Made by a program: the position numbers and the translations under genes
DNA from: Candidatus Multivoradales bacterium
Lineage (GTDB): Bacteria > Acidobacteriota > Thermoanaerobaculia > Multivoradales > Multivoraceae
Reading direction: 5' to 3'
Assembly: GCA_965223325.1 (NCBI GenBank)
Contig: CBDCWI010000002.1
Span: 640,001 to 704,000, forward strand
DNA length: 64,000 bases
Notes under the pieces: model-generated
Databases searched by the model: none
Told to the model about the DNA's origin: nothing
Seen by the model: the letters and a program-made list of their open reading frames with translations, nothing else
Shown here: positions 633-15,257 of the stretch, piece by piece
Layout of the letters: every line of letters starts with the position of its first letter
Numbering within the stretch: the stretch's first letter is position 1

Positions 633-2093
633 TTGAGTCTCCATCCTCCCGCTCCCCACAGAAGGACGCCTGCCGCGGCAGCGTTCACCGCCAGCCTTCT
701 GTCTCTGCTGGCCGCCTCGGTGCTGGCCGGCTGCCGGCCGACCGCCGAGCCGCCGCCGGGCGCCTCCGCGTTGCCAAAGCCGGCGCCAAAGTCGGCGCTC
801 GAGACTCCGGCGCCGTTCGAGAACCTGATCATCCTGATGATCGACACCCTGCGCGCCGACCATCTTCCCTGCTATGGCTACGAGCGCAACACCGCCCCTT
901 TCGTGTGCCGCCTCGCAGAGGATGGTCTTTCCTTCGAGTCCTACTCCGCCTCGTCGTGGACGCGGCCGTCGGTCGCCACCCTCTTGACCGGTCAGCCACC
1001 ACCGGTGCACCAGACAATCACCCGCAGCGACTCCCTGCCGGCCGCGATCCCGTACCTGCCTGAACTCCTGAGCGAGCAGGGTTTTGTGACCGCGACGTTC
1101 GTCGGCAACCTCAACAGCGGTCGGCGCTTTGGTTTCGCGCGTGGCTTCGAGCACTACCACCAGACTCGGCCGACCGGCAAGGTCGATGGCGCCAAGGTCA
1201 CCGATCGCGGCATCAGCCTCCTCCCGATGCTCAGCGGGCGCTACTTTCTCTACCTGCACTACGTCGACCCGCACGACCCCTACCGTCCTGCGCGCCCGTG
1301 GCAGAGCGCAGGAAGAGAAGCACGAGAACACTCCTGGACGCAGCCGCGAAAGATCGGGTCCCGCCCCCCCAACCCGCGAGAGATCACCAGCCTCATCGAT
1401 CAGTACGATGGCGAAATCCGCGAGATGGACAGCGAGATCGAGCGCTTCCTGGCGGCTGCCGACGCGGCCGGGCTGCTCGCCGACACTCTCGTGGTGATCA
1501 CTTCCGATCACGGCGAAGAGTTCGGTGAGCACGGCGGCCTCACCCACGGTCGGACCCTGTGGGAAGAAGTTGTAGCGGTACCACTCGTTCTGTGGTCCGC
1601 CGACGGTCGGCTCAGGCCATCGGCTGGCCGCCCGGTCCTCGACCACATCGATGTCCTCCCGACGCTCCTCGAAGCACTGGCGCTCGAGGTCCCCCAGGGC
1701 CTGGCCGGCGACTCGCGCTGGTCCAACCTCGAGGCGCCGCGAACAGGTTCCCGCTGGTTGCATCTCGACCTCGATGATCGCGCCCTTCTGGCTTCGCGCA
1801 ACGGCGACCAGAAGACCATTTGGAGCCCGCAGAGAAGCCTCACCTTCGACCTGGCGAGTGATCGAGAAGAACAGGCGCCGCGCCCGGCCAAGCGCCAAGC
1901 GACACTCCACATCCTCGAGCACTACCTGGCAATCGTTACCTCAACGCCACCGCAGCAGGCGCCACTGGATGACGAGGCACAGGCGGCGTTGACGGCGCTG
2001 GGCTATCTGGATCCAACCGAAGACACCACCGACCTCGGCCGGCGACAACTCACCCGCGAGTCGATCGAGCGCGCCCTCGATCAACTGCCCTGA
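633..2093 (+). CDS. Sulfatase-like hydrolase (alkaline phosphatase superfamily), lipoprotein
   Basis: Lipobox LAGC; IDTLRADHL, SWTRPS, HYVDPHDPY, YDGEI, TSDHGEEFGEHG motifs. Confidence 0.85.
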   Translation: MSLHPPAPHRRTPAAAAFTASLLSLLAASVLAGCRPTAEPPPGASALPKPAPKSALETPAPFENLIILMIDTLRADHLPCYGYERNTAPFVCRLAEDGLSFESYSASSWTRPSVATLLTGQPPPVHQTITRSDSLPAAIPYLPELLSEQGFVTATFVGNLNSGRRFGFARGFEHYHQTRPTGKVDGAKVTDRGISLLPMLSGRYFLYLHYVDPHDPYRPARPWQSAGREAREHSWTQPRKIGSRPPNPREITSLIDQYDGEIREMDSEIERFLAAADAAGLLADTLVVITSDHGEEFGEHGGLTHGRTLWEEVVAVPLVLWSADGRLRPSAGRPVLDHIDVLPTLLEALALEVPQGLAGDSRWSNLEAPRTGSRWLHLDLDDRALLASRNGDQKTIWSPQRSLTFDLASDREEQAPRPAKRQATLHILEHYLAIVTSTPPQQAPLDDEAQAALTALGYLDPTEDTTDLGRRQLTRESIERALDQLP

Positions 2094-10389: not shown

Positions 10390-10890
10390 CTACTCCTCTT
10401 CGTCAGCCAAGACGCGCAGCAGGTCGGAGGCGGTGATGATGCCGACCGGTGCGTTGTCATCGGTCACCAGAACCCGGCGAATGTGGGCGCTCTGCATCAT
10501 GCGGGCGACTTCGGACAGTGACGCGGTCACCGGGACGGAGTAGATGGCGCGGTTCATGATGTCGTTGACGTCTCGCGACACGTCCTCGAGGTGAAAGCCG
10601 CCCTGAGCGGGACCATCGAGGGACTCGTTCCACTCGCGTACCCAGTAGTCCGGCAGGGCGTAGTTCCAGCCCGGGGCGGCGCGCTCGACGGCGACCCCGG
10701 CGAGATCGTAGAGCGACACAACGCCGACGAGATCGCCAGCCTCATCCTCAACGAGGGCGCCGCTGATCTCGTGCTCGATCAGAAACTCGGCAAGGGCAGA
10801 GACCGGCATGTCCGAGGGCACGATACGCAGGTCTGTGGTCATCAAGTCGGCGATCTTCGTTCTGCTTCGGGCGGCGGTCGAGGTCTTCAT
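10390..10890 (-). CDS. CBS domain pair protein
   Basis: IADLMT...ISGALV...VGVVSLYDL and VNDIMN...IRRVLV...VGIITASDLL. Confidence 0.9.
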   Translation of the reverse strand: MKTSTAARSRTKIADLMTTDLRIVPSDMPVSALAEFLIEHEISGALVEDEAGDLVGVVSLYDLAGVAVERAAPGWNYALPDYWVREWNESLDGPAQGGFHLEDVSRDVNDIMNRAIYSVPVTASLSEVARMMQSAHIRRVLVTDDNAPVGIITASDLLRVLADEEE

Positions 10891-11031
10891 GCGTGGCCCC
10901 TCTGGTAGCGGTCGGTTTCGAGCTTCACGCAGCGAGTGTGTTGCGGTTCGCCGGCGGCGGGCACCCGGGTTTATGGCCAGTCGACCACGTGGAATCCGCA
11001 GCCGGGACACCGCCCTACCGCCGATGACCGA

Positions 11032-11844
11032 TCAAGAGCGCCTGTTCCAACGATTCATCCCCGCGCGCGCAACGAAGCCTGCGGTGATGAAGCCCGCAAG
11101 CATGAGCCAGTTCCAATTGTGACCGTAGGAGATGATCGGAAAGTGGTTGCTCACCATGATGAAAATGAGGGGCAAAGCCATGAAGGTGTTGTGGGTCGAG
11201 CGCTCTTTGGCGCGAAGGCCCAGGCTCAGGTCGGGTTCTTCACCCGCTTTTAGGCTTTCGACCATCGCCCGCTGCCCAGGAAGAATGCGCATCCAGACGT
11301 TGGCCGTCATGATCGTTCCCATGACCGCACCGACGTGGATGTAGGCGGCGCGGCCCGAGAAAACCCGACTCATCGCGTAGCCAAGGGCAAAGAGGGCAAG
11401 CGTCGAGACCACGCTTCCGAGCGCTTCTCGCTCTACGAAGACCGTGTTCCATAGGAAGTCGTAGACCAACCAGCTGAACGCCAGTACCGCCAGTGAGATC
11501 ATGATCGCAACGCCGAGGCTCGCTTCGGAGCTGAAGTCGAGAAGAGCGCCGCCGTAGTAGTAGACCAGCGCCAGCATCAGGATTCCACTCAGCCAGCTCG
11601 CCGCCGCCTCCCACTTGAACCAGTGCAGAACCCTGGGTAACGGGTCCGGAACTCCCAGCTTCTCGACCCGATAGAAGCCGCCGCTGTGCACCATCCACAC
11701 GCGCTCGATGCCCTGGTCGTCCTGCTCGATCCTCATCCGGGTATCGAGCCAGGCAAAGAAGGCAGTCTGCCCGATCCACAGCACGCCGGCCACGACATGA
11801 AACCAGCGGGTCGCAAGATGAATCCAGTTGTAGAGCGTATCCAT
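11032..11844 (-). CDS. Urate hydroxylase PuuD-like membrane protein (Urate_ox_N domain only)
   Basis: RWFHVVAGVLWIG, WMVHSGGFY, LHWFKWEA, GTIMTANV, RSTHN, SNHFP motifs; AGGAGG RBS; no CxxCH domain. Confidence 0.85.
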   Translation of the reverse strand: MDTLYNWIHLATRWFHVVAGVLWIGQTAFFAWLDTRMRIEQDDQGIERVWMVHSGGFYRVEKLGVPDPLPRVLHWFKWEAAASWLSGILMLALVYYYGGALLDFSSEASLGVAIMISLAVLAFSWLVYDFLWNTVFVEREALGSVVSTLALFALGYAMSRVFSGRAAYIHVGAVMGTIMTANVWMRILPGQRAMVESLKAGEEPDLSLGLRAKERSTHNTFMALPLIFIMVSNHFPIISYGHNWNWLMLAGFITAGFVARAGMNRWNRRS

Positions 11845-11883: not shown

Positions 11884-11972
11884 CCTACCCGCTTCGATCG
11901 ACCGCTCGCCGAGCGCGACGAAACACGCTCAGCCCCGCCGCGCTAGGATCGCCGCTCCCAACTGGAGTCACC

Positions 11973-13319
11973 ATGGCCAATCACCACACCAGAGTCTACG
12001 AAGGCATCCTCGAGATGCTCTCCAGCGCGGAGAACCCCACCCCCATGGTCCGCTTGAACCGGACCGTTCCCTACCAGCAAACCACGGTGTACGCCAAGCT
12101 GGAGTGGTACAACCCGTTCGGGTCGGTCAAAGACCGCGTCGCCCACAACCTGCTTCGGGATGCCCGCGAGAAGGGGCTCCTGGCCGACGGGCAGCAGCTG
12201 GTCGAGCCAACGAGCGGCAACACCGGCATGGGACTCGCCATGATGGCCAACGCCGCCGGCTACCACCTGACGACCCCGCTGTCGAACAAGGTCCCGGCAG
12301 AAAAGCGGGTCATGTTGAAGGTATTCGGTTCCAACGTCGTGGAGCTGGACGACGATCTGTGACCCGCCCCCGGGTCCCCGGAGGGGGCCATCGCACGCGC
12401 CAGGGAGCTTGCCGAACAGCCCGCGTTCCACATGCCCAACCAGTACGAAAACGAGGCGAACATCGAGGCTCACGTTCGCACGACCGGGCCTGAGATCTGG
12501 CGGCAGACCGACGGCCAGGTCACCCATTTCGTCGCCGGAACAGGCACCTGCGGCACGATCACCGGCAACGGACGCTTCCTCAAGGGTCAGAACCCTGAGA
12601 TCCAGGTCATCGGTGTGCATCCGCAAGAGGGGCACGACATTCCGGGCGTCCGTTCTTTGCGTCAGCTCGAGCTCACCAAACTCTTCGTTCCCGAGGAGTA
12701 CGACCAGATCGTCGAGGTCAGCGACGCCGAGTCGTTCGAAATGTGCGTGCGTCTCAATCGTGAAGAAAGCCTGATCGCCGGTCCCAGCTCGGCGATGGCA
12801 CTCGTCGGGGCCCTCAAGGTCGTCGAGGACCAGCCAGACGCTGTCGTCGTGGTGATCTTCCCAGACAACTCGTTCAAATACGCCTCCACCTTCGAGCGAC
12901 ACTTTCCAGAACTTCGCGCTTCTCGTCCGGGCGGCGATCCCGCGGTCTCGAGCGACAAGGAGCTGCTCTTCGACAGGCTGGTTGAAAACTCCCGCAATGC
13001 CCACAACACCTTGGAAGTAGAGGACCTCGTCGCGGCGCTCGCAAGCGACCGACCACCCCTGCTGGTCGATGTGCGCTCACCTGAGGTCCACGCGCGCCAA
13101 CACATCACGGGGACCCTCAACCTTCCGGTCGCCGAGCTCGGCAATCGTCAGGGCGTGCTGCCAGAACGGCGCGACCACCCGATCGTCACCGTGTGTACCG
13201 TCGGCAACCTGTCGGTCTCGGGCATGCTCGTTCTGCAATCGCTCGGCTATCGGAACGTGCGCAGTCTGAACGGTGGCACCGTGGCGTGGGCAAAAGAGGG
13301 GCTGGCGACGAATCCATAG
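11973..13319 (+). CDS. PLP-dependent cysteine synthase family protein fused to a rhodanese domain; probable selenoprotein (in-frame TGA, codon 130; 448 aa)
   Basis: ORFs 11973..12362 and 12432..13319 share one frame and are separated only by TGA 12360-12362 (..DDDL-U-PAPGSPEGAIARA..). Motifs NPFGSVKDR and EPTSGNTG lie before the TGA; NQYEN, TTGPEIW, GTGTCGT and rhodanese DVRS/VCTVGNLS/LNGGTVAW lie after it. Confidence 0.85.
12373..12389 (+). promoter_or_regulatory. Candidate bacterial SECIS hairpin
   Basis: Stem GGUCCCC (12373-79), loop GGA, GGGGGCC (12383-89). The stem starts at the 11th nt after the UGA, and the G-initiated loop is 17 nt downstream of it. Confidence 0.65.
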
Positions 13320-13360
13320 GATCGAGGGCGACACCGAGGCTTCCACTCACCACCTCTGGC

Positions 13361-13389
13361 TTGACTCTCTAAAACAATTTTGCTATTGT
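13361..13389 (+). promoter_or_regulatory. Putative sigma70 promoter with extended -10
   Basis: TTGACT-N17-TATTGT with TG at the extended -10 position, in an AT-rich patch 44 nt upstream of ATG 13433. Confidence 0.6.
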
Positions 13390-13432
13390 TTTACTGGGTT
13401 GTGGGGTTATCCCATTCCAACAGGAGATTGCC

Positions 13433-14275
13433 ATGGCGAAACCGAGCTCCGACCTCGCAAGAATCGAGAAACTTCGCGCCGGACTGCTTCAGTTCCTGAT
13501 CGTCGTTGTCATGTGCCTCCTGGGCGGCATCATTGCGATCGCCTTCCGGGACGCGATTGGCACACAGATCCCCGGACTCGCCATCCTGGCTCTTGCAACG
13601 TGTCTCTATGTTCTGGGCCGCGAGCGCTACCTCAAGAGGGCCCAACAGGAACTTGTCGAGGGTGCCATGGCTGTCCAGGCACGGGCCTCGGCGCTCGAGA
13701 ACATCACGCGCCGAGAGCGCTCCGACAAGGCCGACCTCGGCGTTCGGCTGAGCGAATTGACCGCGCTCTACCGCGCGATCAGCACCGTGCGGGCGGTGAT
13801 GGACCACGAGCAGACCTTCGACACCACCCTGCGCTCCGTCCTCGACCTCGTCGAGGGCGATGTTGGCTCCGTCATGTTGGTCGACGACCAGCAGCAGACC
13901 CTGCGCATCGTCGCAGCGCACGGCCTGACCAACGTCCCAGTCGGCCACACCGAAAGTCTGGAGCAGGGAGTCGCCGGCTACGTCGTTCGAACCGAAGAGC
14001 CCCTCCTGCTCCAGGGAGACGCCAAAGACGACGAGCGCTTCGAGGTCTCGCATGAACGCAGTGAAGCGCTGGCGCTCTCGATGTGCGTACCGCTCGCGCT
14101 CCGCGGGCGGGTGCTTGGGGTTCTCAGCATCGGATTGTCGGTGAACAACGAGAAGCAGCACTTCAGCGACGACGATCTGCGCTTTGCCACCCTGTTCGCG
14201 CAGCACGCGGCGATCTCGGTCGAGAACGCCAGCCTGCTCGAGCGGCAGTCCATCTACGAGGTCCAGGCTATCTAG
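13433..14275 (+). CDS. Membrane-anchored GAF domain protein
   Basis: Two TM helices, coiled coil, then GAF motifs (GVAGYV, MCVPL..RGRVLGVL, FSDDDL, AAISVENA); AGGAG RBS. Confidence 0.85.
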   Translation: MAKPSSDLARIEKLRAGLLQFLIVVVMCLLGGIIAIAFRDAIGTQIPGLAILALATCLYVLGRERYLKRAQQELVEGAMAVQARASALENITRRERSDKADLGVRLSELTALYRAISTVRAVMDHEQTFDTTLRSVLDLVEGDVGSVMLVDDQQQTLRIVAAHGLTNVPVGHTESLEQGVAGYVVRTEEPLLLQGDAKDDERFEVSHERSEALALSMCVPLALRGRVLGVLSIGLSVNNEKQHFSDDDLRFATLFAQHAAISVENASLLERQSIYEVQAI

Positions 14276-14321
14276 CAGGCGGATAGTCTGTGCACCCCGG
14301 CTCCAGCCAGGACCTCACACG

Positions 14322-15257
14322 ATGACCGCACCTCCTCCAACCTCGTTACCCGAGCTGCATCTCCACCTCGACGGCTCGTTGCGCCGCACAACGCTCGAGG
14401 AGCTGGCGGAACCGCTGGGGGTCGAGGTGCCGGCGGTTCTCGAGTTCCGTGCGGGCATGGGACTGGAGGCGGCTCTCGAACTCTTCTCGGTGACGCTCGC
14501 GGTGTTGCAAACGCCCGATCGGGTCCAGCGCGTCGCGTCTGAAATCTGCGAAGACGCCCAGGCCTGTGGCGTTTCGACGCTCGAGGTGCGCTTCGCACCG
14601 CAGCTCCATCGTGGCGCAGCGGTCGAAGAGATCGTCGACGCGGCACTCTCTGGTCTCGAGCGCTTCGGCGAGCTGACCGGCGAAGAAGCGGGCTTGATTC
14701 TCTGCGGGCTCTACGGCGAGGATCCCAGCGTCTATGACAGGTTCCTCGAGGTGGCGGTGGGGCGTCCGGGCGTAGTGGCGATCGACCTGGCCGGTGGGCC
14801 GCAAATGGGACACAGCTTCTCGATGGAACACTACGCTCCCGCCTTCACTCGGGCGCGCGACCTCGGTCTCGGCCGCACAGTGCATGCCGGCGAGGGGCGG
14901 CCACCTGCCGAGATCGGTCAGGCGATCGAAACCCTGCACGCCCAACGCATCGGTCACGGCACCAGCGTCCTCCAAGACCCTCGGGTCACCGATCTGGTCC
15001 TCGAGCGCGGTGTGCGACTCGAGGCCTGCCCGACCTCCAACGTCCACACCAGCGCCATTGCCAACGTCGAAGAGCACCCGCTGCCCCGTTGGCTCGACCT
15101 CGGCATTCAGGCGTCGATCAACTCCGACAACACCTTGTTCTCGCAGGTCAACGCCGCCAGTGAACACCAGGTGGCACTAGGGATTCCCGGCATGAGCCAG
15201 GCCAAGCTCGAAACCGCCATTGCCGCCGGACACGCCAGCCGCTTCGAGCGCCGCTAG
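14322..15257 (+). CDS. add: Adenosine deaminase family protein
   Basis: ELHLHLDGS, EVRFAP, DLAG, TVHAGE, RIGHG, CPTSN, NSDN motifs. Confidence 0.88.
   Translation: MTAPPPTSLPELHLHLDGSLRRTTLEELAEPLGVEVPAVLEFRAGMGLEAALELFSVTLAVLQTPDRVQRVASEICEDAQACGVSTLEVRFAPQLHRGAAVEEIVDAALSGLERFGELTGEEAGLILCGLYGEDPSVYDRFLEVAVGRPGVVAIDLAGGPQMGHSFSMEHYAPAFTRARDLGLGRTVHAGEGRPPAEIGQAIETLHAQRIGHGTSVLQDPRVTDLVLERGVRLEACPTSNVHTSAIANVEEHPLPRWLDLGIQASINSDNTLFSQVNAASEHQVALGIPGMSQAKLETAIAAGHASRFERR

Follow-up and report, generated by a model that had tools for sequence, protein, structure and literature searches.

Within a 64,000-nucleotide window of the genome of Candidatus Multivoradales bacterium (contig CBDCWI010000002.1), the gene at 11973-13319 joins a cysteine-synthase-like pyridoxal phosphate (PLP) domain to a C-terminal rhodanese domain in a single reading frame, whose in-frame TGA codon very probably encodes selenocysteine (Sec). 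Judged from alignments, the protein belongs to a widespread, uncharacterised family with an otherwise invariant Cys at the same position, residue 130. Our data indicate that the gene in all likelihood encodes one 448-residue selenoprotein, with UGA130 decoded by tRNA-Sec and SelB via a hairpin at 12373-12389; that selenium is actually incorporated at residue 130, by whichever details of decoding, appears slightly more secure still.

The frame lies on the forward strand, with the TGA at 12360-12362 as its sole interruption and a TAG at 13317-13319 as its terminator. On either side of the TGA, and in the same frame, ORF calling reports separate open reading frames (ORFs) at 11973-12362 (129 aa) and 12432-13319 (295 aa). 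A sequence-only reading of this DNA had taken these two ORFs for one frame split only by the TGA, which the sequence and the ORF list confirm, and had expected read-through to yield a 448-aa enzyme with codon 130 in a DDL-U-P motif. Translation with TGA as U returns that same product, with one recoded codon (U130) in the context ELDDDL-U-PAPGSPEGAI. Both domains score well above their Pfam cut-offs (PALP, 228 bits vs. 35; Rhodanese, 50.7 bits vs. 22.2), and the PLP and rhodanese motifs, described as intact in the sequence-only reading, proved near-invariant across 95 aligned family members: K53 (in SVKDR), T80-G85 (TSGNTG), Q157, G191-T195 (GTCGT) and C408 are each invariant or differ in at most one row. 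The only Cys residues invariant across the family are C130, C193 and C408. We take K53 to be the Schiff-base Lys, TSGNTG the substrate loop and the Gly-rich loop the phosphate-binding element. A 353-aa ORF on the opposite strand (window positions 11943-13004) runs antisense to most of the gene and was taken for a chance frame of GC-rich coding DNA.

Relatives of the gene carry either Cys or TGA at the column in question. Among 120 database matches, one was the window's own downstream ORF and the remaining 119 were full-length fusions (390-560 aa), all of which have Cys at the TGA column within a near-invariant motif, L-C-P-A-P-G-A-P-E-G-A-I. At the DNA level we examined 97 loci, made up of the window, 16 loci from individual relative genomes and 80 from a collection of species-representative genomes. 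The codon at the column was TGC in 52 loci, TGT in 24 and TGA in 21, with TGA in 18 and Cys codons in 62 of the species-representative loci. The 21 TGA rows count the window itself and list one locus twice (L056 is L023), which leaves 19 other distinct TGA loci, all from other assemblies, whose proteins are 70-81% identical to the window protein and whose frames are open and conserved on both sides of the TGA (orthologs as a whole are 57-81% identical across residues 1-447). Counts of 95 rows, which apply to the tree, hairpin and synonymous-variation analyses, leave out L056 and L066; the latter, a TGA row, is included in the 20-locus count of hairpin identity given below. Both patterns that the sequence-only reading had suggested looking for, Cys in homologs (119 of 119 full-length matches, and TGC or TGT in 76 loci) and a TGA conserved among relatives, are present side by side. 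The Cys also extends beyond the fusions: two PLP-only relatives that lack the rhodanese domain (L024 and L048, ~50% identical) have Cys at the column (ALCPSPG), retain the Cys of GTCGT, and contain a single TGA, which is their normal stop.

The TGA itself is well supported by sequencing data. Contigs of two sequencing runs, possibly the source of this DNA, cover 11900-13400 with 0 differences. A 151-nt contig from a run of another study spans 12347-12497, including the TGA, also with 0 differences, which speaks against the assembly error that the sequence-only reading had allowed for.

The Sec form is also abundant in sequence collections under another guise. We searched a collection of 5.8 billion proteins with the 129-aa upstream ORF, and all of its best 120 relatives ended right before the column, 115 of them at exactly 129 aa, with C-terminal ends reading DDDL in 93, EDDL in 25 and two variants in the rest. 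Where named in their sources, these short relatives are called 'cysteine synthase' or 'pyridoxal-phosphate dependent enzyme'. Since the best 120 short relatives all stop at the same column, the Sec form would be common in environmental data and, on this evidence, is systematically annotated as a truncated gene. Cys-form clusters in the ESM Atlas carry generic labels only.

Immediately downstream of the TGA lies a candidate selenocysteine insertion sequence (SECIS). Its hairpin core, GGTCCCCGGAGGGGGCC at 12373-12389, has a folding free energy of -11.8 kcal/mol. A published model of bacterial SECIS elements calls for a loop of 3-9 nt, a stem of 4-16 bp, G in the first two loop positions, a distance of 16-37 nt from UGA to loop, and a minimum free energy (MFE) of -7.5 or lower (PMC13188914). 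The candidate agrees with each of these constraints (loop of 3 nt, GGA; stem of 7 bp; UGA-to-loop distance of 17 nt), giving a position to the SECIS hairpin that the sequence-only reading had placed after the UGA without coordinates. In Sec-form loci, hardly any variation is seen at bases 13 to 35 (counted from the TGA's first base), third codon positions included, and the same stretch varies freely in Cys forms. Of 20 Sec-form loci, 18 share an identical core; L067 and L071 have a 5-bp stem and a 4-nt loop, shifted by one base. To gauge synonymous variation in 9-codon windows, we compared sequences pairwise and scored, among pairs with the same amino acid, the fraction whose codons differ. 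Across the 19 Sec forms analysed, the five lowest scores among 432 windows belonged to those that start at +0 to +4 (0.16-0.19; mean over the gene, 0.42). Across the 76 Cys forms, windows with starts from +1 to +4 reached 0.59-0.65, above the mean of 0.53. Constraint on the hairpin may be visible in the protein as well: at residue 135, 19 of 21 Sec rows have Ser (TCC) and all 76 Cys rows have Ala, and the T of this Ser codon supplies the U of a U-G pair in the stem.

The source genome (6.69 Mb in 2 contigs, 98.2% complete) has the capacity to decode Sec. The sequence-only reading had named selA, selB, selC and selD as the genes to look for, and all were located: selA (449 bits), selB (327 bits, C-terminal part included) and selD (223 bits) score above their curated cut-offs, and ARAGORN called a tRNA-Sec with anticodon TCA. 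The selD homolog forms the C-terminal part of a 767-aa ORF (L010:295-2598, forward strand; G000:C1) whose N-terminal half is a pyridine nucleotide-disulphide oxidoreductase domain (Pyr_redox_2); this ORF contains no in-frame stop, and its SelD would therefore be of the Cys type or another non-Sec type. The same genome encodes a second, canonical selenoprotein gene, an FdhA-like molybdopterin oxidoreductase with an in-frame TGA in the motif CAAT-U-HAP; UHxP is the Sec motif listed for FdhA in Table 1 of a 2026 review (PMC13188914). The two genes belong to unrelated protein families, but their hairpins are alike. In the FdhA-like gene, a 7-bp stem starts 11 nt after the TGA and carries a loop (GGUCU) that begins with GG; in the fusion gene, the 7-bp stem starts 10 nt after the TGA and its loop (GGA) likewise begins with GG. 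Two further Sec-form genomes (G003 and G010) also contain selA and tRNA-Sec. A reassigned genetic code was considered and rejected: of the window's 56 open frames with 300 codons or more, 25 terminate at TGA, which therefore serves as an ordinary stop.

Several observations weigh against reading the gene as a selenoprotein, or blunt the evidence for it. Sec machinery is not confined to genomes with the Sec form, as selA and tRNA-Sec also occur in G054 and G591, whose genes are of the Cys form, and in G001, a congener that lacks the gene; the machinery is therefore necessary but non-discriminating. No RNA runs containing the stretch are listed. Mean hairpin energy is lower in Sec than in Cys forms (-11.7 vs. 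-8.4 kcal/mol) but does not separate them cleanly, as a fold of -8 kcal/mol or better at the hairpin site is also reached by 48 of the 76 Cys forms. Part of the tendency to form a hairpin is therefore a side effect of the codons for G-A-P-E-G-A, which are self-complementary in GC-rich DNA. Such a pre-existing propensity in Cys forms may have eased the switch from Cys to Sec, as a kind of pre-adaptation. Folding the 70 nt that follow the TGA gives an MFE no better than those of shuffled sequences (z = +1.47), so energy alone does not distinguish the hairpin. MFE folds of longer stretches adopt alternative pairings with the variable bases 4-12, and we therefore defined the hairpin from its invariant bases. 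Compensatory covariation in the stem was absent among Sec loci, because the stem is invariant. Finally, the loop of the E. coli fdhF SECIS contains a U, which the GGA loop lacks.

Explanations without selenium have to account for the same column. One possibility is a pseudogene whose TGA arose by nonsense mutation or by a mistake in sequencing or assembly. A single substitution separates TGC and TGT from TGA, automatic ORF calling breaks the gene in two, and databases hold truncated calls only. This explanation is already contradicted by 19 further distinct loci (70-81% identity) that share the TGA and have intact frames on either side of it, by the shared end of all of the best 120 short relatives, by the contig of another study and by the intact catalytic motifs, and we give it almost no credence. 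Scarcely more credible is a true stop at the TGA, with products of 129 aa and 295 aa that assemble into a split enzyme. A PLP enzyme in two pieces is conceivable and an ATG (12432) lies 23 codons after the TGA, but those 23 codons show in-frame conservation of the protein sequence (PAPGSPEGAIARA...) and align with uninterrupted Cys forms, and a split would leave the exact coincidence of the break with an invariant Cys codon unexplained.

A somewhat stronger, though still improbable, contender is read-through of the UGA by a near-cognate tRNA (Trp, Cys or Arg), aided by a weak UGA-C context and the hairpin. UGA followed by C is a leaky stop context, and the base after the UGA is always C; as the column borders Pro131, this follows from the invariance of that residue. 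The hairpin-prone Cys forms fit this explanation too. Yet leakiness would waste most of the product, the genome retains complete Sec machinery together with a canonical FdhA-type Sec codon, the hairpin conforms to SECIS rules of spacing and loop, and UGA in place of an otherwise invariant Cys is the standard hallmark of Sec. We therefore favour decoding of UGA130 as Sec, and the following paragraphs discuss what the residue might do in the protein.

The closest NCBIfam models to the fusion are cysKM, cysM, CBS and cysK, and its scores fall below the curated cut-off of each (cysKM, TIGR01136, 271 vs. 344; cysM, TIGR01138, 257 vs. 394; cysK, TIGR01139, 246 vs. 351). By these scores the PLP domain is a related but distinct subfamily of CysK/CysM. 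The rhodanese part matches a MoeB-rhodanese model (NF006444, E = 2.7e-12), and no selenoprotein-specific NCBIfam model matches the 448-aa protein. Its closest solved relatives are the CBS-like Rv1077 and E. coli CysM (O-acetylserine sulfhydrylase B; PDB 2bhs, 2bht and 2v03). CysM has the same fold-type II PLP domain (phmmer E = 8.5e-57, residues 20-311) and shares with the window protein the Schiff-base Lys, the TSGNTG loop, the Gln and a P-x-E-G-x-x-I-P-G-[IV]-R stretch. As a cysteine synthase, the protein would catalyse beta-replacement of O-acetyl- or O-phosphoserine with a sulfur nucleophile. The window protein differs from CysM in its GTCGT loop (GTTGT in CysM), in the added C-terminal rhodanese and in a five-residue insertion that holds the Sec or Cys. 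In the alignment, this insertion forms part of a loop leading into the segment of CysM Met119, which aligns six residues after the Sec. Met119, Gln142, Phe143, Ala231 and the PLP phosphate surround a docked ligand in one published description, whose numbering may be that of another isozyme (PMC3805590). This lends indirect support to placing the Sec130 loop at the mouth of the PLP site.

A redox or sulfur-transfer role of residue 130 seems somewhat more likely than not, and a specific relay between Sec130 and Cys408 rather unlikely. If a relay existed, Cys408 of the rhodanese would take up sulfane sulfur (e.g., from thiosulfate) as a persulfide, and Sec130 would either pass the sulfur into the PLP site or resolve a mixed disulfide arising from persulfide attack on the PLP-bound aminoacrylate. 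The product would be cysteine or cysteine persulfide, and the Se-S bond would be reduced afterwards. Extended to the whole family, the scheme describes a self-contained, sulfane-sulfur-dependent cysteine (or cysteine-persulfide) synthase that bypasses free sulfide, in which residue 130 on a lid loop carries the Se-S or S-S bond and the switch to Sec sped chalcogen exchange. We regard this extended scheme as speculative and, taken whole, a shade less likely than the relay by itself.

Two observations count against the relay. The PLP-only relatives keep both the column Cys and the GTCGT Cys in the absence of a rhodanese domain, which ties residue 130 functionally to the PLP domain first, and all-against-all clustering of flanking ORFs at 95 loci revealed no neighbour conserved across the family. 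A real selenoprotein in which Sec130 serves as a regulatory or structural redox switch (e.g., with Cys193), and takes no part in a relay with the rhodanese, has a minority chance of its own. Retention of both C130 and C193 in the PLP-only relatives agrees with it, as does the location of C193 in the GTCGT loop, at a site occupied by Gly or Thr in other cysteine synthases; Cys408, however, is invariant in 95 of 95 fusions, which argues for a working sulfurtransferase beside the PLP domain.

Known systems offer partial parallels to the proposed sulfur transfer by a Sec-containing fusion. In CysO/MoeZ/CysM-type synthesis, sulfur reaches CysM via a carrier loaded by an E1-rhodanese protein, as in mycobacteria, so that a rhodanese and a CysM-like enzyme are functionally coupled, as in the fusion. 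Unlike in that system, the rhodanese is here joined directly to the PLP enzyme. Operons that combine a cysteine synthase with an E1-rhodanese fusion have been described (PMC1779556). Rhodanese-like selenoproteins of forms 1-5, listed in Table 1 of the 2026 review, likewise contain PF00581 and are presumed to act in sulfur transfer, with Sec inside the rhodanese motif (UxxS, UxxG, CxU or UxxxxU; PMC13188914). The window protein is unlike these forms, as its rhodanese keeps Cys408 and its Sec lies in the PALP domain.

Within the family, the Sec forms cluster. A quick maximum-likelihood tree (95 rows, with the focal column masked) placed all 19 Sec rows in one group of 21, the other two members of which (L031 and L068) have Cys. 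The tree requires at least two changes at the column, and a single origin is compatible with its well-supported branches. Titles of the metagenome-assembled genomes (MAGs) with Sec loci, the labels of which are uncertain, name Myxococcota, Myxococcales or Deltaproteobacteria, Candidatus Multivoraceae, Candidatus Marinacidobacterales, Planctomycetota and one Spirochaetaceae. MAG labels for the CysM-rhodanese family as a whole include Acidobacteriota, Planctomycetota, Verrucomicrobiota, Actinomycetota and Myxococcota. One Sec-form genome, G010, is from the same family as the window, Candidatus Multivoraceae (Acidobacteriota, Thermoanaerobaculia in the NCBI taxonomy). No ortholog was found at E <= 1e-60 in G001, which is of the same genus, 99% complete and the closest relative searched. 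The source genome encodes two further CysK/M-like paralogs that score above the fusion on the cysKM model (306 and 296 bits), indicating that the fusion is a specialised enzyme and not the sole cysteine synthase. No match over the cut-off for cysE was found in the source genome (best 126 bits vs. 210).

Gene neighbourhoods varied among the 95 loci, the best cluster of flanking ORFs reaching 12 of them. In the window, the gene is flanked at 10390-11844 (reverse strand) and 13433-15257 (forward strand) by genes for a CBS-pair protein, a Urate_ox_N membrane protein (divergent from the fusion gene), a GAF protein and adenosine deaminase; none of these recurred beside orthologs at the 95 loci, and they offer no functional lead. 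A sulfite/nitrite reductase gene (NIR_SIR + NIR_SIR_ferr) stands head-to-head upstream, on the opposite strand, in 10 of 95 loci (L080, L087, L090, L091, L093, L095, L111, L113, L121 and L122), all of them Cys forms from MAGs labelled Verrucomicrobiota, Planctomycetota or Actinomycetota. This arrangement hints at a role of the fusion in sulfur assimilation. No ThiS/MoaD-like or E1 gene was conserved beside the fusion gene among the flanking ORFs of these loci. Coordinates of the features discussed here are collected in Table 1.

Table 1 Features of the fusion gene and of the FdhA-like gene (window positions unless another locus is given).
Feature	Position	Strand	Description
Shine-Dalgarno-like GGAG	11964..11967	+	5 nt 5' of the ATG, read from the sequence
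Complete predicted selenoprotein gene	11973..13319	+	448 codons + TAG; CysK/CysM-like PLP domain, C-terminal rhodanese
PALP (fold-type II PLP) domain	12021..12866	+	Residues 17-298; Pfam PF00291, 228 bits
K53 codon (SVKDR)	12129-12131	+	Kept in at least 94 of 95 aligned rows
UGA codon 130, probably read as Sec	12360..12362	+	Cys/TGA column in homologs
Candidate bacterial SECIS core, 17-nt hairpin	12373..12389	+	7-bp stem, 3-nt loop at 12380-12382; starts 10 nt after the UGA
C193 codon (GTCGT loop)	12549-12551	+	Kept in at least 94 of 95 aligned rows
Rhodanese domain	13026..13295	+	Residues 352-441; Pfam PF00581, 50.7 bits
Rhodanese active-site Cys408 codon	13194-13196	+	Invariant in 95 of 95 rows
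FdhA-like gene	G000:C2:861336-862079; TGA at ~1828-1830 (- strand) of extracted locus L133		UHxP motif

The sequence-only reading had not recognised the protein as a classical selenoprotein family, and the current catalogue agrees: neither PF00291 nor cysteine synthase nor any other PLP enzyme appears among the 119 families and subfamilies in Table 1 of the 2026 review (PMC13188914). The terms 'cysteine synthase', 'pyridoxal' and 'PLP' are likewise absent from a 2022 review and from the GOS survey (PMC9312934 and PMC2398784), and our full-text literature searches, which extend to neither supplements nor subscription journals, found no paper on a cysteine-synthase or PLP selenoprotein. By this comparison, the protein would represent a selenoprotein family absent from the current catalogue, though one of a familiar type, with Sec in place of a reactive Cys and a putative SECIS right after the UGA. 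New bacterial selenoprotein families turn up regularly, as the 119 now catalogued attest. Most catalogued families are thioredoxin-like or metal-binding (PMC13188914), and the present one would add the fold-type II PLP enzyme to the catalogue as a selenoprotein fold. Should Sec130 prove to act as in the relay outlined above, the protein would be the first PLP enzyme with a catalytic selenocysteine.

For annotation, the consequence is that at least 120 database clusters would be truncated 129-aa 'cysteine synthase' calls, which should be merged with their downstream ORFs. For the biology of the CysM-rhodanese family, alternation between Sec and Cys identifies a residue as chemically active, and residue 130 therefore points to the functional centre of an otherwise uncharacterised group of enzymes. 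These data provide a concrete hypothesis for how sulfur may enter cysteine.

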